Positions 7,664 through 36,784 of a stretch of DNA of 47,149 bases are shown here, piece after piece. The DNA comes from a phage. The position numbers and the translations under genes were made by a program. The stretch is from sequence record PZ445406.1. One strand, written 5' to 3'. Position 1 is the stretch's first letter, and every line of letters begins with the position of its first letter. The notes beneath the pieces are model-generated. The model made no database searches, was not told the DNA's origin, and saw only the letters and a program-made list of their open reading frames with translations.

Positions 7664-10639
7664 ATGGCAACAAATGAATTAGCCGGAATCACGCTAGCCG
7701 TAGACGTATCGCAGGTAGATAGGGGAACGCAATCCCTACAGAAGTTCAGGCAGGCTAACCAACAGGCCGCTTCCGGGATTAGTGAATTCATAAACGCTGA
7801 GCAGGTTGCTAAAAACCAGGCGAGAGATACAGCTCGCGCACTTGCTGAGCAACAGGCATCACTGGCTAAGCTGCAAACTGCGATTGATCCAACTGCGGCA
7901 AAGTTCCGTAAGCTGCAAGAGGCGGCCGTAGGTCTTGATAAGGCGTTCGCTGCTGGCGTAGTTCCTGATGAGGAATTTTTCCGATTAGGTGAGGCTCTTG
8001 AAACGCAGAATGCAAAACTTGCGCGTTCACGCGCAGCTTTAACCGAGGAGGGGAGGGCGGCGGCTCAAGCGGCAAAGGAGAAAGCGGCAGCAAAAGCAGC
8101 AGCGGATAGATTTATCGCATCACTTGAGCGACAAGCTCAAGCTGCGACGCTGACTCGTGAGGAGTACTTAAAGCTACAGGCTGCACAGCTTGGTGTTAGT
8201 TCTCAGGCTGCGCCTATTATTGACAGAATCGCTGAGGCTTCAGAGCGAGCAAATGTTCAATTAGCAAACCAAAGCAAGGCTTTTCAGAAGTCCGGGCTAA
8301 GTGCCGGGCAATACAAGAACGCCATTAGCCAACTGCCAGCACAGATTACAGATATTGGAACATCACTTGCTGGTGGCATTCCGATTTGGCTTATTGCAAT
8401 TCAGCAGGGCGGACAAATTAAGGATGCATTCGGAGGTATTGGTAACACATTTAGATTCGCGCTGGCTGCACTAAACCATTTTAATGTTGCTGTTGGCGTT
8501 TTGGGAGGCGCACTCGTCGCTCTCGGTATTGGCGCGGCTCAGGCTGAAAGTGAATTCAGGGCATTGAACTCTGCCATTGCATTCTCAAACAACTCGACAA
8601 TCACTTCAATCTCGCAAATTAGACAGTTGGTTAGCTCTGTTTCTGACGCTACCGGCGCCACCAGAGGACTGGTAACCAGCATCGCAACAAGCCTTGTTGA
8701 GCAAGGAAACCTTACGCTAACGCAGATTGATAAGATTACTAAATCAACAGCAAGATGGGCGCAGTTGACAGGTAAGGATGCAAAGGAGATTACTGGTTAC
8801 TACAACCAGATTGCAAGCGACCCAATCCAGGGTTTAGTTGACTTGGATAAGCGCTTTAACTTCCTCACACAGGGGCAGCTGACGACAATCGAAAACCTGA
8901 GAAAGACAAAGGGGGAGGTCGAGGCCGTTACCGCCGCGATTGATATTTTCAGCAAGTCGCAGGAAGCCAACCTTAACGACATTGCAGCTCAATTAACTCC
9001 ACTTGAGTTAGCATGGAATGACTTCAAGAAGTACATCTCTGATGTCTGGGATGCAATTAGCCGTAGAACACTAGGTGCTTTAAACCTGTTTGTTGACGTA
9101 ATAGCAGGAACAATTGAGCAAATCAGGGTCTTCCTTAACCAGGGTGACGTTCTGATTGGTGAATTCGTAATCAGCGCAACTCAGGCATTGCAGAACATAC
9201 CTGGCCTTGATGGTGTTGGTGATGATGTTATCAAGGGGCAGCAGAAGATTATCGATGCCGCCAAGAAGCAAAACCTTGAGCTAGAGAAGTCCATCAGGGA
9301 GCGAGATGCCAGAATCAGAGAGGGAGAGCTTGGTTACGTTAATCGCAGAGAGAATCAGAATACCAATGAGCAATCAGGGACCGATGAGGAATTCGCAAAA
9401 AGGAAGAAGGCACTTCAGGATGAGCTTGACGCGATCAAGAAAAACAGGAAAGAGGAAAATGGGAGGGTTAATGAGCAAAGGGATTTAACAATAGGTTATG
9501 AATCTGGCGTTCTGGCACTTCAGGCTCAACTCAAGGTTCTTCAGGAAAATCGGGATATTGGCGCAGTAATAAGCAATGAGCGCAAGCAGTATCTTCAGGA
9601 GGAGGCTAAATTCAGGATCCTTGAGCAGAGGCAGCTTGATGGCTCGATTACCAAAGAGCAAGCGAGACTTATCGTTGAAAAGGACAAAGTTCTTGAGTTG
9701 GCCAAGCAGAAGGCTGAACTAGGTGATCAGATTGTTTTGCAGGAGCGCGCCAATAAGTTAGCTGAAGATAACCGCAAGAAGATTCTTCAGATTAACAATG
9801 AGGCAAATAACATTGATTTAGGCGCTGGATTGTCATCTCGAGAGCAGCAGAGAGCCAAAGAGATTCAGGCCCTCCAGTCCAATCAGGTTAATGCTGGTGG
9901 CGCACTTGATGACGTGGATTTTCAGCAACTCCTCGAAGCAAGACGCAACTTTTACGCTCAGGAGGATGCGCTACGTGAAAACTGGCTCGCTGGCGTGAAT
10001 CAATCCTTTGCCAATTGGGCTGAGAGCGCTAAGGATGCATTCTCAATTGCTGGAAGTTTAACCACAACAGTCTTTGAGGGCATTACCGACCAGATTACAA
10101 ACCTTGTAACAACTGGCGAGACAAACTTCAGGGAGTTTACTGTAAGCATCCTTAAGCAGATTGCTAAGATTGCGGCTCAGCTTCTTGTTGTCAAGGCAAT
10201 TGAGTCTAGCTTAAGTAGCTTCGGTGGCACTGGTGGCGCTATTGGTTCAATTGCCTCAGCTATAGGTTTTGCTGGTGGCGGCTACACTGGTGATGGCGGG
10301 AAGTATCAGCCAGCAGGAACCGTACACCGCGGTGAGTTTGTATTCACAAAAGAAGCAACAAGCCGAATTGGTGTTAAGAACCTTTACGCGCTAATGAAGG
10401 GATACGCAAACGGTGGCGCTGTAGGTGGTCCATCTGGTTATGCTAATGGCGGTTTGGTTTCTGGTGGGTCAGATGTTAATGTTAGTGGCATCACCGTTAA
10501 CGTTAATGGTGGCGTTGGTAGCGACCCAGAACAGGCCAAGGCATTGCAGAGTGGCGTTAAGGCTATCGTTGCGGAAGAAATTGCTCAGTCTTTCCAGCAG
10601 GGTGGAAAAGCGTATGCCTACCTGAGGGGCTTTAACTAA
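7664..10639 (+). CDS. tail tape measure protein
   Basis: 991 aa, Ala/Gln-rich coiled coils, Gly-rich C-terminus; position after chaperone. Confidence 0.8.
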
Positions 10640-13698: not shown

Positions 13699-16600
13699 AT
13701 GGCACAAATGATCAAAACAAACGTGAGGCTTTGTGATATGGCTGAAGAGATTAAGATTTATGGTGCTAAAGGCGGTAGCCAGAAGCAGCATCAACCAGTG
13801 GAGCAGGAAGATAACCTTATTTCACTTAACAAGGTTAAGGTATTGCTTGCGGTTGCTGACGGAGAGGTGGATCCAAACTTCTCAATGAAGGATTTATACC
13901 TTGCTGACGTTCCGGTGCAAAACCAGGATGGTAGCTACAACTACGAAGGTGTTCGCGCTGAGTTCCGTGCTGGCACGCAGTATCAGGACTATATCGCTGG
14001 CCTTGATGGTGCAAACTCAGAGATTCAGGCATCCAGAGAAATCACGAACGATACCCCGTATATCATCGCGGTTAACAATACTCAGCTATCAGCAATTCGA
14101 GTTAAGCTATTTTGGCCTCGACTAGTTAAGCAAGAAAGTAACGGCGACCTGAACGGTACGACATGTGAGTATGCAATTGACCTATCTGTTAATGGTGGAG
14201 TATATCAGGAATACACTCGCGGAGTTGCTAACGGTAAGACAACTACAGGTTACGACCGCAGCATTCGTGTCAACCTTCCGGCAGAGTTTGATAGCGCACT
14301 GGTTCGAATCCGTAAGATTACGCCAGACTCAACTAGTAGCACGCTGGTCAACGGAATGCAGATTACAACCTATCAGGAAGTAATCGACGCTAAATTCCGC
14401 TATCCGCTTACCGCCCTGGTTTATGTTGAGTTTGGCTCTGACTTGTTCCCTAACGGAATCCCAACAATTTCTATAAAGAAGCGCTGGAAGTTGATTCAGG
14501 TACCGACAAACTACGACCCGGAGACGAGAACTTACAGCGGGACATGGAATGGACTGTTCAAAATGGCATGGTCAAACAACCCAGCTTGGGTTCTTTATGA
14601 CTTAGTGACAAACCGCCGATATGGTCTTGACCAGCGAGAACTAGGTGTAGAGATTGATAAGTGGGGTCTTTACGAGGCTGCGCAATTCTGCGACCAGATG
14701 GTGCCGGATGGTAAGGGTGGTTTAGAGCCTCGTTATCTTTGCGATATGGTTGTACAGAACAAGGTTGAGGCCTACACGCTAATTCGTGATATCTGTTCAA
14801 TCTTCCGTGGTCTGACTTTCTATGATGGAGAAAAGATTGGCATCGTAGTTGATAAGCCTCGTAATCCATCATACATCTTCACGAATGATAACGTTGTAAA
14901 CGGATTGTTCAGCCGCACCTTTGCCAGTGATAAGAGTCTTTACACCACTGCAAACGTTCAGTTTGATGATGTTGAGAACAACTATCAGCAGGATGTTGAG
15001 CCAGTTTTTGAACTCGAGGCTACTCGAAGATTTGGCTTTAACCCTGTTGACCTCACGGCTATTGGCTGTACTCGCAGAAGTGAGGCAAACAGGCGCGGCA
15101 GGTGGCTCCTAAAAACCAACCTGAGAAGCGAAACTATCAGCTTCACTACCGGGTTGGAAGGTATGATTCCGATGGTTGGCGAGGTAATTGCGGTCAATGA
15201 CGCTGCATGGTCGAGCAACTATCAGTTAAACCTTTCTGGTCGCATTGAATCAGTTCAGGGATTGCAGGTTTTCACCCCTTTTAAAGTTGACGCAGCGCCT
15301 GGTGACAGAATTCTTCTGAACAAGCCAGACGGAAGTCCAGAGGCAAGAACTATTGCCAGCGTTTCGGAGGATGGAAGAACAATCAACCTTAACACTGCTT
15401 TTAGTTTTGTAGCTCAACCTGACACTGTTTTCGCAATCGATAAGGATAATATCGCGCTTCAACAGTATGTTGTGACCGGGATTCAAAAAGCAGACTCTGA
15501 TGGTTCGGATTCATTTCAGTATACGATTACAGCAGTAGAGTATGACCCGAACAAGTATGACGAGATTGACTACGGGGTTAACATTGTTGACCGTCCAACT
15601 TCAATTGTGGAACCTGACAGATTGTCGCCGCCCGAGAACTTAACAGTATCAAGCTACAGTAAGGTTGTTCAGGGTTTGTCGGTTGAGACGATGGTTATCG
15701 GATGGGATAAAGCGCCATACGCTAAAACATACAATGTTCAGTGGAGAAAAGAAAATGGCAACTGGATTAACGTACCCAGAACAGCAAGTACAGAGGTTGA
15801 TATTGAGGGCATTTACGCAGGAATCTATGACGTTAGGGTTCGCAGCGTATCAGATACTGAAAACGTATCTGCCTGGTCTGACATTGTAACGGTATCGCTA
15901 ACTGGCAAGATTGGTCGCCCATCTGCGCCTACGGTTATCACGGCTTCAACTGATGAGGTATTTGGAATTCGTGTTAAGTGGGGTTTCCCTGAAGGATCCG
16001 GTGACACTGCTTACACTGAACTTCAGCAGGTCGCTGATAATGGTGACGGCACTTACAATCCTGATAACGCAAGTTTGCTTACGTTACTGCCGTACCCAGC
16101 ATATGAATACTGGCACACGCCAATTCAGCCAGGAAAGGTTATCTGGTATCGCGCTAGATTGATCGACAGAATAGGTAATACCTCTGATTGGTCTGACTTT
16201 GCTAGAGGTATGAGCACTGACGATGCCAACATCATCAACGATTACATCAAAGTTGATATTGAAGGCTCAGAAGGATTCAAATATCTCGAGCAGAATGCGA
16301 TTCAAAAGAATCAGGACATTCAGAATCAAGCTGAGGCAATTATCGAGAACGCATTAGCTAATGACACTGATGTTCGTCGCATGACTAAGGAGAACGGAAA
16401 ACGTAAGGCTGAATATGTTCAGGCAGTGAATCTCATAGCTGATGAAACTCAGGCGCGTGTGGAGGCTCTCACGGCCCTTAAAGCACAGATAGATGATGAG
16501 ATTGTTGGTCAGATTACGACTATTGAAACGGCGCTGGCTACAGAGACTGAAGCTAGAGCTACGGCTGACACTCAGCTATCAGCAAGGATTGGTGATAACG

Positions 16601-17109
16601 AGGCGGCGCTAAACCAGAAGCTAGACGCTTTTGCTAACGCTGAGTCAACTGGAGTTCAGTATGGGATTAGTTTGGGCCTTAACTATAATGGTCAGACTTA
16701 TTCATCCGGCATGAGCATGGAGCTAGTTGGTACTGGTGGTAATGTTCGTAGTCAGTTCATCTTTGACGCAAACAGATTCGCTATCAGTAACGGTATTGGT
16801 TCTGGTTCCGGTCAGTGGCAGCTGCCCTTTGTTGTCGAGAACGGAAACGTAATCATCCAGAGCGCAGTAATCGGTGACGGTTCAATCAGTAACGCTAAGA
16901 TTGGTAACTTTATTCAGTCTAACAACTACGTAGCAGGAACTACAGGTTGGAGGATTGATAAGTCTGGAAACGCCGAGATTCACGGAAGGCTGTACGCCAA
17001 CAGTGGGGAGTTCGCTTTTAATGGAACAAACAACACAGTACAGATTAACGGTAACGGAATCACAGTAAACTTACCTGGAGGTGGAAGAGTTGTGGTAGGT
17101 ACGTTCTAA
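13699..17109 (+). CDS. central tail fiber / host specificity protein J
   Basis: 1136 aa; blocks such as IQVPTNYDPETRTYSGTWNG match lambda J from memory; alternative ATG at 13738 has better SD. Confidence 0.85.
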   Translation: MAQMIKTNVRLCDMAEEIKIYGAKGGSQKQHQPVEQEDNLISLNKVKVLLAVADGEVDPNFSMKDLYLADVPVQNQDGSYNYEGVRAEFRAGTQYQDYIAGLDGANSEIQASREITNDTPYIIAVNNTQLSAIRVKLFWPRLVKQESNGDLNGTTCEYAIDLSVNGGVYQEYTRGVANGKTTTGYDRSIRVNLPAEFDSALVRIRKITPDSTSSTLVNGMQITTYQEVIDAKFRYPLTALVYVEFGSDLFPNGIPTISIKKRWKLIQVPTNYDPETRTYSGTWNGLFKMAWSNNPAWVLYDLVTNRRYGLDQRELGVEIDKWGLYEAAQFCDQMVPDGKGGLEPRYLCDMVVQNKVEAYTLIRDICSIFRGLTFYDGEKIGIVVDKPRNPSYIFTNDNVVNGLFSRTFASDKSLYTTANVQFDDVENNYQQDVEPVFELEATRRFGFNPVDLTAIGCTRRSEANRRGRWLLKTNLRSETISFTTGLEGMIPMVGEVIAVNDAAWSSNYQLNLSGRIESVQGLQVFTPFKVDAAPGDRILLNKPDGSPEARTIASVSEDGRTINLNTAFSFVAQPDTVFAIDKDNIALQQYVVTGIQKADSDGSDSFQYTITAVEYDPNKYDEIDYGVNIVDRPTSIVEPDRLSPPENLTVSSYSKVVQGLSVETMVIGWDKAPYAKTYNVQWRKENGNWINVPRTASTEVDIEGIYAGIYDVRVRSVSDTENVSAWSDIVTVSLTGKIGRPSAPTVITASTDEVFGIRVKWGFPEGSGDTAYTELQQVADNGDGTYNPDNASLLTLLPYPAYEYWHTPIQPGKVIWYRARLIDRIGNTSDWSDFARGMSTDDANIINDYIKVDIEGSEGFKYLEQNAIQKNQDIQNQAEAIIENALANDTDVRRMTKENGKRKAEYVQAVNLIADETQARVEALTALKAQIDDEIVGQITTIETALATETEARATADTQLSARIGDNEAALNQKLDAFANAESTGVQYGISLGLNYNGQTYSSGMSMELVGTGGNVRSQFIFDANRFAISNGIGSGSGQWQLPFVVENGNVIIQSAVIGDGSISNAKIGNFIQSNNYVAGTTGWRIDKSGNAEIHGRLYANSGEFAFNGTNNTVQINGNGITVNLPGGGRVVVGTF

Positions 17110-17111
17110 AA

Positions 17112-17135
17112 TAAAAGCCCCGAAAGGGGCTTTGT
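17112..17135. terminator. bidirectional terminator between convergent genes
   Basis: AAAGCCCC-gaaa-GGGGCTTT with A-run upstream and T-run downstream. Confidence 0.6.
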
Positions 17136-17137
17136 CT

Positions 17138-18073
17138 TTAATACATGTCTGGAAGGTAAGGCAATGGAGTGGATATTGTTACGTCAGGTCTGTTTCCAAT
17201 CTCATATCTTACAATCCTTGATCCAGTTCCCGATCGAACATAACCATTACTCATTACGATTCCTTTGTTTCTTAACTCCTTGTAAGCTGGAATTGCCCTG
17301 GTGTTAAATCCGCATCTTAATATTGGGAAGTAGGATTCGCCAATATACTGATTGCTACCTGATAGGTTTATGAATCCAGAAACAACCAACGGCCTTGTAA
17401 CGGTTGATAAAGTGCAAACACCATTAGAGTTAAATATGTTCAATCCGGGTCCTGGTATTGGCGCAACCATCTGAAAAATAATCAAGTCCATAGTGACACT
17501 TCCAGGAGTGTCTCCAGTATCTTCAGTGTTTATGTTTGTGCATATCAGTTGATTGCTCCCGTTGTATTCAACCGAGACGCCGGAGTTATTCCACTTTCCA
17601 AATGGTATCCCATAAATTGGCAGCGTGTATGTGTTGGTGAAAGATATCCTCTGAGCAAACTTGCACACCAACAACCTGTCAGTGGTGGTTATCGAAGTAA
17701 AATCTGTGCTATTGGCAACATAAATACCCTGACCAGTAGATGCTCTTAGTACCTCAACAACAGTACCAGAAAATTGAGTTATACGGTCAGAATATCCATT
17801 CTTATAGCCAATCGATATTGTTCCGCTTGATGCTGTTGATGAGAATCCATTTATGTAGTAAACCTCAACGCCCCTATCAAGTTCGAATGAGTAGGCACCA
17901 TTATTAGGGATTAGGAACCTTGACGCTCCTTCATTACCCTGGATTGAAAAAGTTTTGCTAAATCCACCACTAGAAACGTTGAAGTTGCCAGCAAAGTTCA
18001 AGGCACGCATCCCTGCGGTTATTGTCATTGGCTTTCTTCCGTCATTGAGGTCTATATAAATACCTTGAGCCAT
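17138..18073 (-). CDS. hypothetical beta-rich Gly/Ser/Asn-rich protein (possible receptor-binding or tail-associated)
   Basis: ATG 18073 with AAGGAG SD (track start 18082 is GTG); convergent with J across a bidirectional terminator. Confidence 0.5.
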   Translation of the reverse strand: MAQGIYIDLNDGRKPMTITAGMRALNFAGNFNVSSGGFSKTFSIQGNEGASRFLIPNNGAYSFELDRGVEVYYINGFSSTASSGTISIGYKNGYSDRITQFSGTVVEVLRASTGQGIYVANSTDFTSITTTDRLLVCKFAQRISFTNTYTLPIYGIPFGKWNNSGVSVEYNGSNQLICTNINTEDTGDTPGSVTMDLIIFQMVAPIPGPGLNIFNSNGVCTLSTVTRPLVVSGFINLSGSNQYIGESYFPILRCGFNTRAIPAYKELRNKGIVMSNGYVRSGTGSRIVRYEIGNRPDVTISTPLPYLPDMY

Positions 18074-18303
18074 TAATTCCACTCCTTAGAACCATAATCA
18101 CGAACGGACCCACTGGAGCCTTTAATTCCATCGTAGCGAATATCAATTTCACCAGCCGGAACAATTACGCCGCTTTTCCATTTAGCTACGCACACTCCGT
18201 TTGAGGATGTAGCGCACCAACCATCTGGGCGAGGACCAGATGAGCAGCCTACCATCATGATTGCTGCTGCGGAGATGATTACTGATTTGATGAAGTTATT
18301 CAT
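18073..18303 (-). CDS. small lipoprotein (candidate Cor/Llp-like superinfection exclusion protein)
   Basis: ATG 18303 with AAGGA SD; signal peptide ending in lipobox MVGC; about 76 aa; own phage-type promoter. Confidence 0.5.
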
Positions 18304-18342
18304 TTTTAAGTCCTTATTAAGTTTTCTCGTTTCGATGTGGTA

Positions 18343-18386
18343 ATGATAACTCATCCCTGCGGATTGTCTTTAGCAATTCGTGCTAT
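18343..18386 (-). promoter_or_regulatory. phage-type promoter module (drives lipoprotein gene)
   Basis: Minus strand ATAGCACGAATTGCTA, 22-bp spacer, TATCAT, leader CCACATCGAAACGAG. Confidence 0.5.
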
Positions 18387-19059
18387 TTGCAATGAAAACC
18401 GCCCTTGCGAATCCTCTCGGTGTAAGACTGCGGACTACCTTCGTTTTCTTACTCTTACCGCCTAGCTTCTTGTATTGGTCTGAGAATCCGTCATTAACAG
18501 GCACGGGAATAGCATCAGGCCATTTAAACCCATTGCCAGACCAAATACATGTCTTCTTAGGATATGCGTCGCGAGGCTTTATTAGGTCGCTAAAAAACGG
18601 GTGTAAATCATCTTCCGGCAAATAGCCTCCGTATTCGTAAGGGTGGAAAGTGTTATCAGGCTTTCGCCAAAGTGATGAAAGTACGCTTATCGGGTTCTCA
18701 ATCATGTATGGCACTTGGTACTTATTAGCCAGGTTAAAGGCAACTTTACACGCTTCAGCAGCTTCAATTTGGAAATTGGGGTTAGCAAGGCGCTTGCGCT
18801 CAAAGTGTCTTGACCCGCTCACCGCTAAATCCGTACAGGGCGGGAATGCCAAAATGAAATCAGGCTTCACATTAAAATCGAAGTCAGCATCTATCCATGC
18901 GTTAACATAGGTGATGTTGTGATGCTCAACCTTTGCATTTAAGTCACCGTAGCTCCCATGGTCAGAATCATCAAAGTTGAAACAGTAGCAAGTGTGACCA
19001 GCTTCAGCCCAATCTTTCACCGCAAGACCAGAGCCATCAAATAAAGACCAGATAACCAT
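18370..19059 (-). CDS. DNA cytosine-C5 methyltransferase-like protein
   Basis: Motif I-like LFDGSG, motif IV-like FPPCT, motif VI-like ENP; GAGAGGA SD. Confidence 0.45.
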   Translation of the reverse strand: MVIWSLFDGSGLAVKDWAEAGHTCYCFNFDDSDHGSYGDLNAKVEHHNITYVNAWIDADFDFNVKPDFILAFPPCTDLAVSGSRHFERKRLANPNFQIEAAEACKVAFNLANKYQVPYMIENPISVLSSLWRKPDNTFHPYEYGGYLPEDDLHPFFSDLIKPRDAYPKKTCIWSGNGFKWPDAIPVPVNDGFSDQYKKLGGKSKKTKVVRSLTPRGFARAVFIANSTNC

Positions 19060-19442
19060 TTTACAATCCTCTCTCGTTGTTTGTGCGACTAACTATACCA
19101 GGTTTTGCGTCTGAGTTTTAGCTATTCGTGCTATTGCATACACGTAACAGATGTAACTTGATGTATACAATCTAATCCGCGGAAAATGATATACGCCAAG
19201 TTACGCATGGTTACGCTATATTTACATTAAAATATCTATATATATCAACCATTTACTCTTATTATTATTATTATATATATTACTGTGTATATCATGTAAC
19301 TACCTCTATAGAGTGTTCCGGTTGCAATTTTAATATCATGTGGATTTATACAGTGTTGCACGGTGCTATACCAATGCACCCTCAGCAATAAATGATATAC
19401 ACGATATACACACTAGTTACATTGAGCTATAGCTGATCTGAG
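19060..19442. repeat. AT-rich divergent control region A with iterons and (TTA)5 microsatellite
   Basis: No credible ORF; tandem GATATACAC x2 at 19394-19411; (TTA)5 at 19259-19273; 19-mer ATATCTATATATATCAACC at 19232-19250 shared with region B. Confidence 0.6.
19092..19134 (-). promoter_or_regulatory. phage-type promoter module (leftward from region A)
   Basis: Minus strand ATAGCACGAATAGCTA, 21-22 bp spacer, TATAGT. Confidence 0.5.
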
Positions 19443-19787
19443 GTGCCAGAAAACGTAACTAGTGGCAATGCATACATGGAATTACAAGAATTCACACGTA
19501 AACTTAATAAATTGATAGGCACAAACGATTGGATTCCAGCAAGCCACGCGGATATAGTTAACCCATCGAAAGCAAGCAACCAAATAGATACGAAAATGGG
19601 AAAGAAAATAGATAGATACTCAGCTCACACCGTAATACTACCCAGCTATGCTCCGGTTTTTATTGGTGTAACTTACGAAGTGGCTCTTAGATTATGCGAG
19701 TCATCATATGGTAAAGACTGGAAAAACAAATCAATTAGAATAGAGAAGACAACTAGAGAACATATCAAAATCATCGCGGGGGTATAA
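19443..19787 (+). CDS. hypothetical protein
   Basis: First ORF rightward of control region A; start ambiguous (GTG 19443 or ATG 19476). Confidence 0.4.
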   Translation: MPENVTSGNAYMELQEFTRKLNKLIGTNDWIPASHADIVNPSKASNQIDTKMGKKIDRYSAHTVILPSYAPVFIGVTYEVALRLCESSYGKDWKNKSIRIEKTTREHIKIIAGV

Positions 19788-25481: not shown

Positions 25482-25504
25482 TGTGTAAAGTCTCCATTTG
25501 TAAA

Positions 25505-25522
25505 ATAGCACGATTTGCTAAA
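25505..25522. promoter_or_regulatory. isolated copy of the TAGCAC/TGCTA palindrome (operator-like)
   Basis: ATAGCACGATTTGCTAAA between primase terminator and tail fiber start, with no matching -10 at the usual spacing. Confidence 0.35.
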
Positions 25523-26550: not shown

Positions 26551-27024
26551 TTACTCTTTAGCTTTTCGTGCTGCTTCGTTGGCGGCCTTGATCTTGCGCC
26601 ATGATCGACACTCTGGCTTGGTGGCTAATTCAGCCTCAGTAACAACGCGCAGCATGTGACGTTTTTTGCATCGTAGTGTAAGCGGTTTTCCGTTACCGTC
26701 GAATTGCAGGTCCGGTCGACAGAATGTAGCGCGAAAACCTTCCCCAGTTCGTTTGTAGTAGTTATGCGACAGTTGAGCGCCACGTGCAGAAATCATACCA
26801 CGCTTAAACCATTCTTCCACGGCCTGAGGAGTTACCTTTAGCTGCTTTGCGATATTCGCCTTTGTGCCGAAGAAATCAAGTAGCATCTCAAGCCGCGCAC
26901 GTAGCCCTGCCCTTACTTCATCTTTTAAAACGTAGTAGCCTGAAGGTCGTTTGCGCTTCTTTTTGTCTTCAGTGCGGACGGTTCCGTTATTCCCGTTAAT
27001 GGTTCGCTTGTCTACTGCATTCAT
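26551..27024 (-). CDS. HTH DNA-binding protein (candidate transcriptional regulator)
   Basis: Basic protein with Cro-like segment IAKQLKVTPQAVEEWFKRG; divergent from helicase promoter. Confidence 0.5.
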   Translation of the reverse strand: MNAVDKRTINGNNGTVRTEDKKKRKRPSGYYVLKDEVRAGLRARLEMLLDFFGTKANIAKQLKVTPQAVEEWFKRGMISARGAQLSHNYYKRTGEGFRATFCRPDLQFDGNGKPLTLRCKKRHMLRVVTEAELATKPECRSWRKIKAANEAARKAKE

Positions 27025-31475: not shown

Positions 31476-32606
31476 ATGGCAACCGCAAAAATCACCAACG
31501 AACAATTGCGCGAAGAGTTAGCAAATGGCATGACCAACAAGGCAATCGCAGAGAAGTACGGAATGAACATTCGCAACGTTGAATTGCGTCGCAGTAAATT
31601 AGCTAAACAAGGCGAAGGGCATGGTCGCGATGTAAGCAACTTAATCCCTCAGGGCTATGCAGTTAAAGGCGTCTCCAGCTTAATTGGTGCTGATGGCGAG
31701 ATTAAGCAACAGTGGGTTAAATCAGATATCGACAAGGAGAAGCAAGAAGAGATGATGCTTCAGGCAATTCAGGCCCTAACTGATGAGTTGCCGCGTGAGA
31801 AAGCTAAAGCTTTAAGGGTTGGTTTATGGGAAGATACTTTAAGCCTTTACCCCGTGTTCGACCTCCACATTGGAGCAATGGCTCATCATGCTGAGTGTGG
31901 TGAGAACTATAGTACTGAAATCGCTGAGAGAGTTCTTAATGATTACTTTGATTACGCGGTTGCAAAGGCCCCCAACTCCAAGAAAGCTGTATTGCTGATT
32001 GGGGGTGACTTCCTTCACTCTGACGGAATGGAAGCGGTAACACCAACCAGTCGTCATGTTCTTGATCAAGATAGCCGTTATCACAAACTTGTTTACGTAG
32101 CAGTGCGAGCGACACGTCGAGCAATTAGCCGTATGCTTGATAAGCACGCCGAGGTTGAGGTTCAGATTATTCCAGGTAACCACGATCTCTCAGGTATGAT
32201 TTGGCTTCGTGCTGCAATGGCAGCTTTCTATATGGATGAGCCTCGAGTTAATGTTGATGCGTCCCCCGCTGCGCTTCACGTAACGCAATTTGGGAAGACG
32301 CTGCTTGGTTACTGCCATGGGCACGAACTCAAAAAGCCTGATACCCGACTATCAGCACTGGCTCGTGACCATCGCAAAGCATTTGGTGAATCAGAGTATG
32401 TTTACACCCATTCAGGCCACTATCACCATCAAACTATTACGGAAGGAAATCTGGGTATTGATGAATCACACGGCCAGCTTGGAGCGAAAGATGCGTACAG
32501 TGCTAACGGAGGTTATCGCTCTTACCGACAGGCTTCGGTGATAATTTATAGTCCTGAGTTTGGTGAGATTGGACGATTTACTTGCCGCCCGGAAATGTTT
32601 AGTTAA
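31476..32606 (+). CDS. calcineurin-like metallophosphoesterase with N-terminal HTH-like segment
   Basis: DLHIG, GGDFLHSDG and IPGNHD motifs in phosphoesterase order; HTH-like KAIAEKYGMNIRNVELRRSKL. Confidence 0.5.
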   Translation: MATAKITNEQLREELANGMTNKAIAEKYGMNIRNVELRRSKLAKQGEGHGRDVSNLIPQGYAVKGVSSLIGADGEIKQQWVKSDIDKEKQEEMMLQAIQALTDELPREKAKALRVGLWEDTLSLYPVFDLHIGAMAHHAECGENYSTEIAERVLNDYFDYAVAKAPNSKKAVLLIGGDFLHSDGMEAVTPTSRHVLDQDSRYHKLVYVAVRATRRAISRMLDKHAEVEVQIIPGNHDLSGMIWLRAAMAAFYMDEPRVNVDASPAALHVTQFGKTLLGYCHGHELKKPDTRLSALARDHRKAFGESEYVYTHSGHYHHQTITEGNLGIDESHGQLGAKDAYSANGGYRSYRQASVIIYSPEFGEIGRFTCRPEMFS

Positions 32607-32997: not shown

Positions 32998-33213
32998 ATG
33001 AGGGAAGTAATTAACGCCGCTACGGCATCAACTGGCGGTGCCGCGGTAACTGGCGCAGCAACTGGTCAAATGACCATAGCAATAATCAGTCTTATCGCTC
33101 TTATCATTTTTGGTGCGTGGGGGGCTTACTGGAAGTATAAGGACAGCCAGGCGATTCGCAGAGCACTTGAGTCGGGAGATTTAAAGACAGCAATCAAGAT
33201 AAGGAGCAAATAA
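32998..33213 (+). CDS. holin (putative)
   Basis: ATG 32998 with AAGGTGG SD; one strong TM helix; directly upstream of endolysin. Confidence 0.5.
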   Translation: MREVINAATASTGGAAVTGAATGQMTIAIISLIALIIFGAWGAYWKYKDSQAIRRALESGDLKTAIKIRSK

Positions 33214-33699
33214 ATGAAGCAGAAGCTGCTAATTAGCGCGGCTACGGCTGCGGCAATATACATCGCAGCACCGCTTATTGAGCTCGTTGAGGGTGTGGAG
33301 AACGAGACTTACATAGACATTGCCGGGGTGAAAACCGTATGCGCAGGTGTCACTGGCCCTGACGTGGTTTGGGGTAAAACATACAGCAACAGTGAATGCC
33401 GGAAGCTGCTGGAGAAACACATTCAAATTCACGCAAAGCATGTTCAGAATGCAGTTACCCACCCAATTGCACCGCAGACAATGGCGGCTTTAATCAGTTT
33501 TAGCTACAACGTTGGCGGTCATGCCATGAAGAATTCAACGGCAATCCGACTAATCAATCAGGGTAAAGTGGAGCAGGGTTGCAAGGCTCTCGGGATGTGG
33601 ACAAAGGCTACCGTTAATGGCAAGAAGGTTGTCGTTAAGGGGTTAGTGAATCGCAGGAATGAGGAGATTAAGTTATGCTTAAGTGGGTTGCAGCGTTAG
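33214..33699 (+). CDS. SAR endolysin (lysozyme, P1 Lyz / phage 21 R-like)
   Basis: Ala-rich weakly hydrophobic N-terminal SAR-like helix; blocks resembling P1 Lyz from memory. Confidence 0.8.
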   Translation: MKQKLLISAATAAAIYIAAPLIELVEGVENETYIDIAGVKTVCAGVTGPDVVWGKTYSNSECRKLLEKHIQIHAKHVQNAVTHPIAPQTMAALISFSYNVGGHAMKNSTAIRLINQGKVEQGCKALGMWTKATVNGKKVVVKGLVNRRNEEIKLCLSGLQR

Positions 33700-34064
33700 T
33701 AATGTGCGTATCTTTATCTGGATGTTCAGCGACTGATGCACTGACCGGATTGATTGGCAGTAAGCCGGAAATTAGTGCGCAGGCTGGTGCAGAGAATAAC
33801 AAGGTTGGAGTTGGGTTAACGAATAAGGTTGACTCAAGTAACTCCAGCGAAGCCACTGTGAAAGACTCTAAAGTTGGCTCGCTAGATAGCTCAAGCGGGA
33901 AAAAGACTGCTGACAACTCTATTAAGGCATCTACAATCACCGCGGAAAAGATTGAGATTACCAACAACGAATCATCCGCACTTCCGTGGATTGGAACTGG
34001 AGCAATGGGGTTGCTGGTTCTGATTCTCATGGCATTAATCTTAAGACGTAAAAAAGCCTCCTAA
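33675..34064 (+). CDS. unimolecular spanin (T1 gp11-like)
   Basis: Lipobox LSGC plus C-terminal TM helix; overlaps endolysin 3' end. Confidence 0.6.
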   Translation: MLKWVAALVMCVSLSGCSATDALTGLIGSKPEISAQAGAENNKVGVGLTNKVDSSNSSEATVKDSKVGSLDSSSGKKTADNSIKASTITAEKIEITNNESSALPWIGTGAMGLLVLILMALILRRKKAS

Positions 34065-34417: not shown

Positions 34418-36001
34418 TCACCCCAGCAATCTCGGATTAATATAAACTTTATCACCAATCAGGCACGTATAGTTTTTCTCATCAAGCATTGGCAGTAAGT
34501 GATCTTTAATCTTCGTCATCACCCCAGCCTGAGCCTCGAACGGCTTAACCTTGCGCGCTGCCTCATACAATGAACGAACACCAACAACTCCCTTACCGTT
34601 TTTGCCTTGCTTGATCAGGATATCAATAAGCTTATTCATCTCGGCATTGTCTCCAGCGTGACCCGCAGCGTTGGCAGATGATAGATACGTCTTGCTCAGC
34701 TCCTGGAACATAATTACTGCCTCTTGCATGGTGTCTAGCTCAATCTCTCTTGACTTCTGTGGACTTCCACCGTTAGGGTTGAACCAGTTACGCACAGTGT
34801 GAAGAACCGCTGCAATCCTGATGGCCTGTTTATCGAACTTCCCCAACGCGCCGCGCAACATTGTGTGGGAATACTTACCGCCGTCAGCAAGGTGAGGTTC
34901 CATTTCCTGACGAGCGCGGTTTAGGTATTTCATTGCTGAATTACTCACTGTCAACTTTACTTCTTGCTCGTTCATTATTTCGTGAACCAATCGGAAGTAG
35001 TCAGCCTTCAACCCGCCATCAATTGGTTCATAAGTCGATTCGCCATTTTCATCAACGAATACACGCTCACCCAGGAATGACTTTTCACGAACCAAAAGGA
35101 AACGTTCAGATACACCGATACCGCGCGCACCAGCATTCATGATTGCGTTAATTGTTTCGTCTTGCGCAATTACAGAGATGCAGCCCATAGCAACGAAGCT
35201 CATGTTGTTCTCTGCGTTCGCACGGGCGATAGATACGTTACCAGCATCCCATGCTTTAAGCACAAGCTCGCTGTTCGTTTTCTTTGAGCCATCGCCATAC
35301 GTCATGCCAAGAAGTGAATTCACGCTCGTTGCTTCATCCGAGATTACTGCGAAGTTTCCCTGGCGGTTGTTTATTCGGGCCAAGCCTTCAGGCGTAGTGT
35401 CTGATACGGGGAAAACGATATCGCAAAGTTTCTCGAGCTTCTCCTCTAAATCTTCTTTTTCCTCAAATAGTGAAGCCATCTCTGACGGAGATTTTTCCTG
35501 CTTCATCTCTTTGGATAATGCAGATAGTTTGGCCATGATCTTTTTACGCTCACGCTTTCGCACTTCATTCAGTCGCTCAGTCTCGGCAATCATTGGAGCA
35601 ATTGAAAGTGAGTTAATAGCTGATTTACCAGTAGATGGTGGCTGGCTTGTTACGACGTAAAGCGACGTGGGCTGCTGAGTTCCGTGATACTCTACAGTGA
35701 ATCGACCAAGCATAGCAGCGGAAATACACCCCAGGAAGTGCATGTAAGCTGAAGATTCAGGGAACTGAACCGAACGAGCAATGTTGGCTGACAGTTTACC
35801 AACAACATCAATATCATTTCCTAGTGAGATTACAGGATACTTGTCATTGGCAGCGTCAATCTCTACTGGCGCCTTCCAGAATGATTGGGACTGTCGATAG
35901 CCATTAGCATTGATGGCGACACGCAAAGGCGGGAGGTTGTCTGCGGCAGCGATTGCCATAACCTGTTCAACAGATAGTTTATCTTCGTTGAAATCAAACA
36001 T
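34418..36001 (-). CDS. P-loop ATPase (possible replication helicase-like protein)
   Basis: Walker A-like PPSTGKS and Walker B-like VISDEA; coiled-coil insert; termini shared with 39187-39714 protein. Confidence 0.5.
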   Translation of the reverse strand: MFDFNEDKLSVEQVMAIAAADNLPPLRVAINANGYRQSQSFWKAPVEIDAANDKYPVISLGNDIDVVGKLSANIARSVQFPESSAYMHFLGCISAAMLGRFTVEYHGTQQPTSLYVVTSQPPSTGKSAINSLSIAPMIAETERLNEVRKRERKKIMAKLSALSKEMKQEKSPSEMASLFEEKEDLEEKLEKLCDIVFPVSDTTPEGLARINNRQGNFAVISDEATSVNSLLGMTYGDGSKKTNSELVLKAWDAGNVSIARANAENNMSFVAMGCISVIAQDETINAIMNAGARGIGVSERFLLVREKSFLGERVFVDENGESTYEPIDGGLKADYFRLVHEIMNEQEVKLTVSNSAMKYLNRARQEMEPHLADGGKYSHTMLRGALGKFDKQAIRIAAVLHTVRNWFNPNGGSPQKSREIELDTMQEAVIMFQELSKTYLSSANAAGHAGDNAEMNKLIDILIKQGKNGKGVVGVRSLYEAARKVKPFEAQAGVMTKIKDHLLPMLDEKNYTCLIGDKVYINPRLLG

Positions 36002-36075
36002 TACTTCTCTCCGTATTGTTTTTGAGAGGCCATTATATCAACGACCTCTTATAAAGCATTATCAATTTGTGCTAT

Positions 36076-36429
36076 TTACAGGTATTGAGCTTCAAATAAG
36101 TAAGTCTGGCAAAGAGTGTAAAAACCAACGTCCTCGCTGCGGTAAAGCTGCCAGGCATTACCATCTTCATCGTAAATGTAACCGGCAGACTGACCAAGGC
36201 CAGCATGAAGTGCCACCTGATAGCGCTTCCCTTCTTTAAAGTCTTTTTTAACACCTGATTTGTGGTTAACCCTTGTGCAGTAAAGCGTCTTAGTCTTGAT
36301 GTACTTACCGCGTTCTTCAAGGTTAATCCATTTTCCACCTTTCTTGATCTGCTCTACACCATCTTTAACGCGAGCTTTGTAGAGTACGTTTTCTTTGCTG
36401 ATGAAGTTTTTAGTCAGTGTAGTAGTCAT
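36076..36429 (-). CDS. hypothetical protein
   Basis: 117-aa ORF. Confidence 0.45.
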   Translation of the reverse strand: MTTTLTKNFISKENVLYKARVKDGVEQIKKGGKWINLEERGKYIKTKTLYCTRVNHKSGVKKDFKEGKRYQVALHAGLGQSAGYIYDEDGNAWQLYRSEDVGFYTLCQTYLFEAQYL

Positions 36430-36589
36430 TTTTTACTCTCTTCGTTGTCCACATGAATTTGTTAGGTACTGACTTGCGCACGATACGCACAACAATCTTG
36501 TCAACCTTCTGAACTAAGCCGTAAATCTTTCCATCAAGTGATGCTCTATAGGTGGCCTCTTCCATTGCGTCATTGAAGTTGTCGAACAT
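36410..36589 (-). CDS. hypothetical 59-aa protein
   Basis: Hand-translated; overlaps next gene start; not in ORF track. Confidence 0.3.
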   Translation of the reverse strand: MFDNFNDAMEEATYRASLDGKIYGLVQKVDKIVVRIVRKSVPNKFMWTTKRVKNDYYTD

Positions 36590-36592
36590 TTT

Positions 36593-36784
36593 CTATCTCT
36601 TTGTTGCGTAAGTAATGTTGCTTGCTGGAGTTGAGCATATGATATCAAGTGGTTTGCTATTGTGCTTAATTGTCTTGCTTTGTTCTCTAGCTGCCAAAAT
36701 TGAATCAATAATCCTTTGAATGATAACCTTATCTCGCTTGCTTGACAGCTTGTGGCGTCTCATTAAAGTTTTGATGTCTTGCAT
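36593..36784 (-). CDS. hypothetical basic protein
   Basis: Phage-type promoter and GGAGGGG SD upstream on minus strand. Confidence 0.5.
   Translation of the reverse strand: MQDIKTLMRRHKLSSKRDKVIIQRIIDSILAAREQSKTIKHNSKPLDIICSTPASNITYATKR

Follow-up and report, generated by a model that had tools for sequence, protein, structure and literature searches.

A small lipoprotein of Escherichia phage JeanPiccard is a probable orthologue of Rtp45, the LptD-directed superinfection-exclusion protein of small siphophages

What does the short reading frame beside the tail-fiber region of this phage encode, and if its product shields a receptor, which receptor would that be? The first-pass annotation of the window (the whole stretch of DNA analyzed here, 47,149 nucleotides from record PZ445406.1) had proposed a lipoprotein gene of about 76 codons at 18073-18303, with a possible role in superinfection exclusion. 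We recovered this gene at exactly these coordinates: it lies on the minus strand (18303 to 18073), begins with an ATG at 18303..18301, ends with a TAA at 18075..18073 and encodes 76 aa. In the sequence, a Shine-Dalgarno element (AAGGA, 18311..18315, minus strand) precedes the ATG by 7 nt. A 2.2-kb stretch around the gene was 100% identical to MZ501080.1, the genome of Escherichia phage JeanPiccard (Bas02), which belongs to the Braunvirinae within the Drexlerviridae. That record is 47,149 bp long, like PZ445406.1, and is rotated by 2,592 bp. The gene is bas02_0025; both it and its neighbor bas02_0024 carry only the GenBank label "hypothetical protein."

The bas02_0025 product matched the Pfam family PF24052, "Phage lipoprotein family," over residues 1-75 (E = 2.3e-36; 124 bits, with the cut-off at 27), and it matched phrog_4281 in PHROG (E = 7.5e-31). 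A tblastn search found homologues in 361 phage records. Given the PF24052 match and these homologues, bas02_0025 is a real gene and not a chance open reading frame. NCBIfam contained no match for the lipoprotein, for the receptor-binding protein (RBP) encoded next to it or for the methyltransferase encoded upstream. A blastn search of 5,426 complete E. coli genomes with the bas02_0025 DNA gave no match, so the allele does not belong to a resident prophage.

The lipobox (MVGC) that had been read from the sequence withstood a formal check: the N terminus satisfies the PROSITE PS51257 lipoprotein rule, with the lipidation cysteine at position 20 and Lys6 in the n-region. The signal peptide comprises residues 1-19 (18247..18303, minus strand), has a 13-residue hydrophobic core with a mean Kyte-Doolittle value of 2.24, and ends in M-V-G before the predicted lipid-modified Cys20 (18246..18244, minus strand). 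The mature lipoprotein would start at Cys20 and consist of 57 aa, or approximately 6.0 kDa (18076..18246, minus strand). It has two further cysteines, Cys30 (18216..18214, minus strand) and Cys38 (18192..18190, minus strand). Under the "+2 rule" of Lol sorting, the residue after the lipidated cysteine sets the membrane destination. This residue is a serine in bas02_0025, that is, there is no Asp inner-membrane retention signal, and the mature protein should therefore reach the outer membrane.

The next gene on the same strand, bas02_0024 (17138..18073, minus strand), encodes the β-rich 311-aa protein whose adjacency had been pointed out in the first-pass annotation, and this part of the description held. 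Its product matched Pfam DUF6453 (E = 5.5e-119) and, over its full length, PDB chain 9RPT_C, the Oekolampad RBP on LptDE (E = 2.8e-40); it is also 79% identical to Rtp44. By homology, bas02_0024 is thus an RBP of the LptD-binding type. The two genes overlap in a TAATG junction, in which the TAA of the lipoprotein gene (18075..18073) shares a nucleotide with the ATG of the RBP gene (18073..18071, minus strand). The Shine-Dalgarno element of the RBP gene (AAGGAG, 18082..18087, minus strand) lies within the codons for the lipoprotein's conserved C-terminal K-E-W, at Lys-Glu.

On the opposite strand, converging on this pair, is the gene for a J-like tail tip protein (13699..17109, plus strand), which is annotated as such in GenBank and matches the Pfam families FNIII-A_GpJ, Phage_Tail_Tip and Phage-tail_3. 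The RBP is thought to be displayed on this tail tip protein. Between the stop codons of J and the RBP gene, we found a hairpin with an 8-bp stem containing five G-C pairs and T-runs on either strand (17114..17133), a bidirectional terminator common to J on the plus strand and the lipoprotein-RBP operon on the minus strand. The lipoprotein gene had been described as sitting just after the J terminator; this proved inaccurate, as the gene heads a two-gene minus-strand operon that converges on J, and about 940 bp separate the gene from the terminator.

A search of all PDB chains with bas02_0025 (E ≤ 1) returned one significant match, 9RPS chain D, "Phage lipoprotein" (E = 2.1e-42), and the alignment extended over 76 residues without a gap. 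This chain is Rtp45 of phage Rtp (UniProt Q333D9), which, like bas02_0025, belongs to PF24052, has 76 aa, carries the lipobox MVGC followed by SSG and has cysteines at positions 30 and 38. The two proteins were identical at 64 of 76 positions (84%) and, in the mature part, at 50 of 57 (88%), with Cys30 and Cys38 kept. Of the 12 substitutions, the signal peptide accounts for five and the mature protein for seven (S33Q, S34A, N35S, S44N, I47V, I53V and I55V, from JeanPiccard to Rtp), those at positions 47, 53 and 55 being conservative Ile/Val swaps.

The two loci are also alike. The rtp45 gene lies upstream of, and overlaps, an RBP gene of the LptD type, this pair converges on J, and the promoter motif upstream of rtp45 is the same as that upstream of bas02_0025. 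The upstream neighbors differ, in that JeanPiccard has a co-oriented gene for a Dcm-like methyltransferase, whereas Rtp has the divergent gene rtp46. Both phages are members of the Braunvirinae and have an RBP locus assigned to LptD, experimentally for JeanPiccard and from the locus for Rtp. LptD was assigned as the terminal receptor of Bas02 because E. coli that had become resistant spontaneously carried lptD mutations (PMC8594841), and a 2026 preprint lists Bas02 among the LptD-targeting phages and refers to the accessory protein of Rtp as an exclusion factor. In our view, bas02_0025 and Rtp45 are very probably orthologues, belonging to the superinfection-exclusion lipoproteins that small siphophages direct against LptD. 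The initial suggestion of a small outer-membrane lipoprotein that blocks the phage's own receptor is therefore supported in kind, by 84% identity to a protein whose complex with LptDE was solved by cryo-EM.

That complex, of Rtp45 with SfLptDE(M), provided a mechanism for superinfection exclusion (PMC12685063). In the structure, LptDE is closed, and Rtp45 is bound near strands β5-8 at the interface of periplasm and outer membrane, between LptE and LptM, with a contact area of almost 1,000 Å2; its residues 30-35 pair as a β-sheet with LptD residues 318-323, and a long hairpin protrudes up the LptD lumen (PMC12685063). Extracellular loop 4 (EL4) of LptD is thereby displaced outward by up to 20 Å, leaving LptD in a conformation that does not allow the RBP to bind and blocking the loop movement to the open, RBP-competent state (PMC12685063). 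This steric displacement was set apart from the long-range allostery that Llp exerts on FhuA, an intramolecular disulfide was seen between Cys30 and Cys38, and the authors of the structure noted that AlphaFold3 mispredicts Rtp45 (PMC12685063). Three of the seven mature differences between bas02_0025 and Rtp45 (positions 33-35) fall within the strand that pairs with LptD 318-323. Because the contact is described as a β-sheet (PMC12685063), side-chain changes at these positions are plausibly tolerated.

From this homology, we infer that the JeanPiccard protein would bind LptD, displace its loop and exclude superinfecting phages in vivo. The precursor would be exported, lipidated on Cys20 and, with Ser at +2, sorted by the Lol pathway to the inner leaflet of the outer membrane. 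It would then bind the LptDE translocon from the periplasm, in the space between LptE and LptM, add a β-strand to the base of LptD strand β6 and push its long hairpin upward within the LptD lumen. This would raise extracellular loop 4 by up to approximately 20 Å, giving a conformation that the bas02_0024 RBP could not bind. Infected cells, and the debris left after lysis, would no longer adsorb JeanPiccard and probably other LptD-dependent siphophages as well. Transcription of the lipoprotein-RBP operon would end at the hairpin in common with J. The literature that we searched contained no efficiency-of-plating or adsorption assay on cells expressing a member of the Rtp45 family; the spot assays found there concerned lptD mutants only.

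To sample the family, we used a protein homologue search, which gave only close relatives (at least 59% identity), all of them in PF24052, and took distant members from phage records. An alignment of nine diverse members (40-92% identity) showed Gly19, Cys20, Cys30, Cys38, Val48-Pro49, Gly51-Glu52 and Glu74-Trp75 to be invariant. Among 25 IMG/VR loci, the lipoprotein gene lay directly upstream of an RBP homologue (0-5 nt) and converged on J in 18, and the TAATG junction was present in 11. The arrangement of lipoprotein, RBP and J also occurs in Rtp, 12210I, TheodorHerzl, CEB_EC3a, SH6 and the temperate phage mEp021. More distant members have the same lipoprotein-then-RBP operon beside J, including the Oekolampad superinfection-exclusion lipoprotein (bas18_0026) and PF24052 members of Dhillonvirus and Tunavirus (such as SH6 gp50); these members are only approximately 33-35% identical to the JeanPiccard protein and are assumed to bind LptD in the manner of Rtp45 (PMC12685063). 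The Oekolampad protein, which has 35% identity to Rtp45, could not be expressed by the authors of the Rtp45 structure (PMC12685063).

In the remaining 7 of the 25 IMG/VR loci, which come from Klebsiella Webervirus and from Kuravirus podophages of approximately 77 kb, no RBP or J gene was nearby. The Webervirus gene is flanked by endonuclease and Dam methylase genes, about 10 kb from the RBP homologue, and the Kuravirus gene (for example, SU10 gp104) sits among small early open reading frames; the setting in either group is thus one of early or replication genes. With these members unlinked to an RBP gene, linkage between lipoprotein and RBP is not universal. The identities of the two proteins to their JeanPiccard counterparts were also uncorrelated, at 76% for the lipoprotein versus 41% for the RBP in CEB_EC3a-type loci and 75% versus 88% in TheodorHerzl. 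This pattern fits a lipoprotein and an RBP that bind opposite faces of LptD and recombine independently, and on that basis cross-exclusion among LptD-dependent siphophages is predicted.

The proteins named in the first-pass annotation as precedents were Cor of phi80 and N15 and Llp of T5; on this reading, bas02_0025 would belong to the Cor (T1, phi80 and N15) or Llp (T5 and BF23) family and block the TonB-dependent transporter FhuA by reverse allostery. Membership of bas02_0025 in either family is refuted at the sequence level, and we give that reading next to no probability. The resemblance that suggests it is genuine, since Cor and Llp are similarly small lipoproteins in a similar genomic neighborhood, and since bas02_0025 gave a weak match to the PHROG Cor profile (E = 0.071) and a BLASTP match to T1 Cor (E = 5e-5). 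However, the similarity to Cor went no further than signal peptide and lipobox: the PHROG match covered residues 7-30, BLASTP aligned little besides the signal peptide, and hhalign of the family profile with T1 Cor aligned 26 columns. No Pfam Cor or Llp family was matched, and T1 Cor scored 17.7 bits on the PF24052 model, below its cut-off of 27. When we searched all PDB chains with the family profile (E ≤ 10), 9RPS_D was the sole significant match, and Llp was not retrieved although the FhuA-Llp complex is deposited as 8A60. Moreover, JeanPiccard depends on LptD, not FhuA (PMC8594841), and bas02_0025 is close to a protein seen bound to LptDE, with which it shares 84% of its residues.

Cor and Llp are best described as functional analogues whose mature parts have no detectable similarity to that of bas02_0025. 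Cor shares with it the small size, the lipoprotein signal, the location in the tail-fiber region and the exclusion role, and the Cor signal peptide resembles that of the PF24052 family and is identical to that of SH6 gp50. By contrast, the mature domain of Cor is unrelated and targets FhuA, and in T1 cor is a solitary gene, whereas bas02_0025 is the leader of an RBP operon. Llp is like Rtp45 in being a small outer-membrane lipoprotein that faces the periplasm, contains an internal disulfide and is encoded next to an RBP gene, and in altering the extracellular loops of the receptor so that the RBP cannot bind. It differs from bas02_0025 in sequence and in its target, a TonB-dependent transporter, and its long-range "reverse" allostery is distinct from the physical displacement of loop 4 that Rtp45 brings about from inside the barrel.

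The close coupling of bas02_0025 to the RBP gene, through the TAATG junction and the internal Shine-Dalgarno element, is conserved in many phages and could also be expected of an assembly factor or virion component for the RBP, such as a chaperone or cap, that has no part in receptor blocking. We regard this as extremely improbable. The Sec/lipoprotein signal would direct the protein to the periplasm and outer membrane, whereas tails are assembled in the cytoplasm; Rtp45 forms a stable complex with LptDE (PMC12685063); and the Kuravirus and Webervirus homologues have no adjacent RBP gene. A different reading accepts LptDE as the target and holds that the protein was selected mainly as an LptDE inhibitor, which would block LPS export or weaken the outer membrane as an aid to takeover or lysis, with exclusion as a side effect. 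The Rtp45 hairpin does run up the LptD lumen, and the failure to express the Oekolampad homologue in E. coli could reflect toxicity (PMC12685063). Rtp45 was, however, co-expressed to excess with LptDE with no toxicity reported (PMC12685063), and the JeanPiccard genome has a complete, separate lysis cassette; we judge a primary role of this kind to be very unlikely. The cassette encodes a holin, an endolysin and a u-spanin (35590-36656 in the record, about 32998-34064 in the window) and is located about 15 kb from bas02_0025. We rejected a spanin lipoprotein (o-spanin or u-spanin) for bas02_0025 on this account, and with such a cassette elsewhere a lysis-lipoprotein reading is not needed. An Rtp45-type exclusion lipoprotein directed at LptD thus remains our preferred reading.

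The gene had also been credited with an independent phage-type promoter, and this was borne out as a motif match but not by a generic promoter scan. A 19-mer promoter/operator motif, AATAGCACGAATTGCTAAA, with the core inverted repeat TAGCA-N5-TGCTA, is located upstream of bas02_0025 (18369..18387, minus strand), in overlap with the final five codons and the stop codon of the Dcm-like methyltransferase gene. A -10-like hexamer, TATCAT (18343..18348, minus strand), follows 20 nt downstream of the motif, and a conserved leader, TACCACATCGAAACGA (18327..18342, minus strand), which is common to four other sites, follows in turn. Allowing up to three mismatches, we counted 16 copies of the motif in the JeanPiccard genome versus 0.06 expected, and the copy upstream of the lipoprotein gene was exact. 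In 15 of the 16 copies, a TATnnT was present 19-21 nt after the motif, and in 14 of 16 an annotated start codon lay on the same strand 73-84 nt from the motif start. The leader TACCnCATCGAAACGA accompanied five of the copies (0 expected), and the 22-nt pattern combining the -10 hexamer and the leader occurred at five sites in the genome, again versus 0 expected. The other copies are found ahead of genes for replication and recombination and of small non-structural genes, and the structural block contains only one copy, which precedes a homing endonuclease gene.

By comparison, a generic sigma-70 scan of 16900-19500 produced seven promoter-like sites versus 6.4 expected from shuffled sequences and was uninformative by itself. 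The site found at TATCAT had AAGACA as its -35 element and scored 9 out of 12, and the distance from TTGCTA to the -10 hexamer was 22 nt, which is not a canonical sigma-70 spacing. The approximately 85 nt upstream of the lipoprotein ATG are conserved in Rtp, 12210I and CEB_EC3a regardless of the upstream gene, and all three have kept the AATAGCACGAATTGCTAAA motif ahead of the homologous gene. In the right 19 kb of Rtp, the motif is present in nine copies, one of them upstream of rtp45. With rtp46 divergent, the lipoprotein-RBP operon of Rtp must have its own promoter. The recurrence of the motif suggests that bas02_0025 and the RBP gene are likewise transcribed from their own copy of a recurring promoter cassette. 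Wietzorrek et al., in their 2006 paper on Rtp, reportedly attributed conserved inverted repeats upstream of Rtp genes to Rtp52; the JeanPiccard homologue of this putative regulator, bas02_0036, is 96% identical. The same authors are said to have put forward an exclusion role for Rtp45 as a proposal only. As a separate observation, a 376-aa open reading frame of the window (31476-32606) was considered as a candidate sigma-70 region 4 protein, similar to one annotated in a Klebsiella relative; its sole match, a weak one, was to a metallophosphatase, and we dropped the sigma-70 assignment.

Much of this picture was already in print. For the small siphoviruses of the BASEL collection, Bas02 among them, an earlier study had described RBP loci that lie downstream of gpJ and come with cognate exclusion proteins (PMC8594841); a prediction of lipoproteins for LptD-targeting phages appeared in 2022 (PMC9586334); and the Rtp45-LptDE structure followed in 2025 (PMC12685063). 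The concept, the family and the mechanism are thus established (Maffei 2021; Dunbar 2025), and our finding adds little to them. What it offers for JeanPiccard is an upgrade of two "hypothetical proteins" in GenBank, with bas02_0024 as a predicted LptD-binding RBP and bas02_0025 as its probable cognate exclusion lipoprotein, together with a natural variant that differs from Rtp45 at three positions in the LptD-contacting strand. Since LptD is both essential and an antibiotic target, any natural ligand that binds its periplasmic face is of some interest. It is a tentative and rather doubtful idea that the Rtp45-type lipoprotein goes beyond self-exclusion tied to its own RBP and acts as a portable LptDE "plug" traded among unrelated phages. 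Were the Kuravirus and Webervirus homologues active, those phages would either pass through LptD themselves at some step of infection or exclude competing LptD-dependent siphophages. Either way, LPS export might be slowed as well by a hairpin lodged in the lumen of LptD, and the JeanPiccard protein would then be a natural periplasmic inhibitor of LptDE.

Across the JeanPiccard genome, we identified a recurring cassette with the layout AATAGCACGAATTGCTAAA, approximately 20 nt, TATnnT, leader, Shine-Dalgarno sequence and ATG. The core of AATAGCACGAATTGCTAAA is an inverted repeat, TAGCA-N5-TGCTA. The whole window contains 16 copies, against 0.06 expected, with motif starts at 10638, 18369, 19117, 21418, 25504, 29537, 29863, 30691, 36058, 36841, 37992, 39710, 40237, 41054, 41687 and 42616. 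Almost all of the genes behind these copies are non-structural, and the distance from the motif to the start codon is fixed at 73-84 nt. The cassette is a candidate genome-wide promoter/operator. The gap between TTGCTA and the -10-like hexamer is 22 nt, a non-canonical spacing that suggests dependence on a phage factor. The obvious candidate for this factor is the homologue of Rtp52, the putative regulator of phage Rtp, which is encoded on the minus strand at approximately 26551-27024 and is 96% identical to Rtp52.

The copy at 25504-25522 has no downstream gene in the same orientation. A hairpin-like sequence comes after it, and the copy lies 23-41 nt upstream of the start of the lateral tail fibre gene, which is on the opposite strand. 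Instead of serving as a promoter, this copy may function as an operator for the tail fibre gene.

At the upstream edge of the lipoprotein-RBP module, the promoter motif (18370-18387) itself encodes the end of a Dcm-like methyltransferase gene, namely its last five codons and stop (…N-S-T-N-C-stop). In megablast comparisons, similarity to phages carrying other upstream genes stopped at approximately 18388, which places the mosaic junction of the module at the edge of the motif. A second sequence with a double role, AAGGAGTGG, lies at the other end of the lipoprotein gene (18082-18087, and at equivalent junctions in the related loci L011-L034), where it encodes the C-terminal Lys-Glu-Trp that is invariant in PF24052 lipoproteins and serves as the Shine-Dalgarno sequence of the following gene. 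AAGGAGTGG is retained in Webervirus too, where the next gene is not an RBP gene; its conservation may thus reflect protein and translational constraints together.

The Klebsiella Webervirus lipoprotein homologues, from PWKp17 (L008:2134-2361) and other records, showed approximately 53% identity. Their gene is flanked by endonuclease and Dam methylase genes, and the DUF6453 RBP homologue is located approximately 10 kb away, with no shared operon. Clear PF24052 lipoproteins are also encoded by Kuravirus podophages with genomes of approximately 77 kb, namely SU10 (gp104, L007:3983-4264, E=2.6e-36), ES17, AnnaHegner (Bas87) and KBNP1711. The Kuravirus protein carries an 18-aa insertion and retains every family-invariant residue; its gene is surrounded by small early ORFs, and the vicinity lacks an LptD-type RBP gene. 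Kuravirus isolates are among the phages described in the second BASEL paper, which states that for many of its O16 O-antigen-dependent phages no receptor-inactivation strategy could be recognised. The presence of the lipoprotein suggests that Kuravirus infection includes an LptD step or, alternatively, that competing siphophages are excluded.

The FhuA-directed Cor of T1 (L010:9624-9851) and the LptD-type lipoprotein gp50 of SH6 (L009:2495-2725) have an identical signal peptide, MKKLITIIAAAFILTGC, whereas their mature domains are unrelated. This combination suggests that exclusion specificities are exchanged among Tunavirus phages by recombination inside the signal-peptide coding region.

Several records labelled with non-enterobacterial hosts (Campylobacter, Pseudomonas and Acinetobacter), including Campylobacter phage A134, Pseudomonas phage PsgS01F and Acinetobacter phage NJ01, carry the E. 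coli-type lipoprotein/RBP module at approximately 35-70% identity. These labels are probably host mis-assignments or reflect contaminant coliphages.
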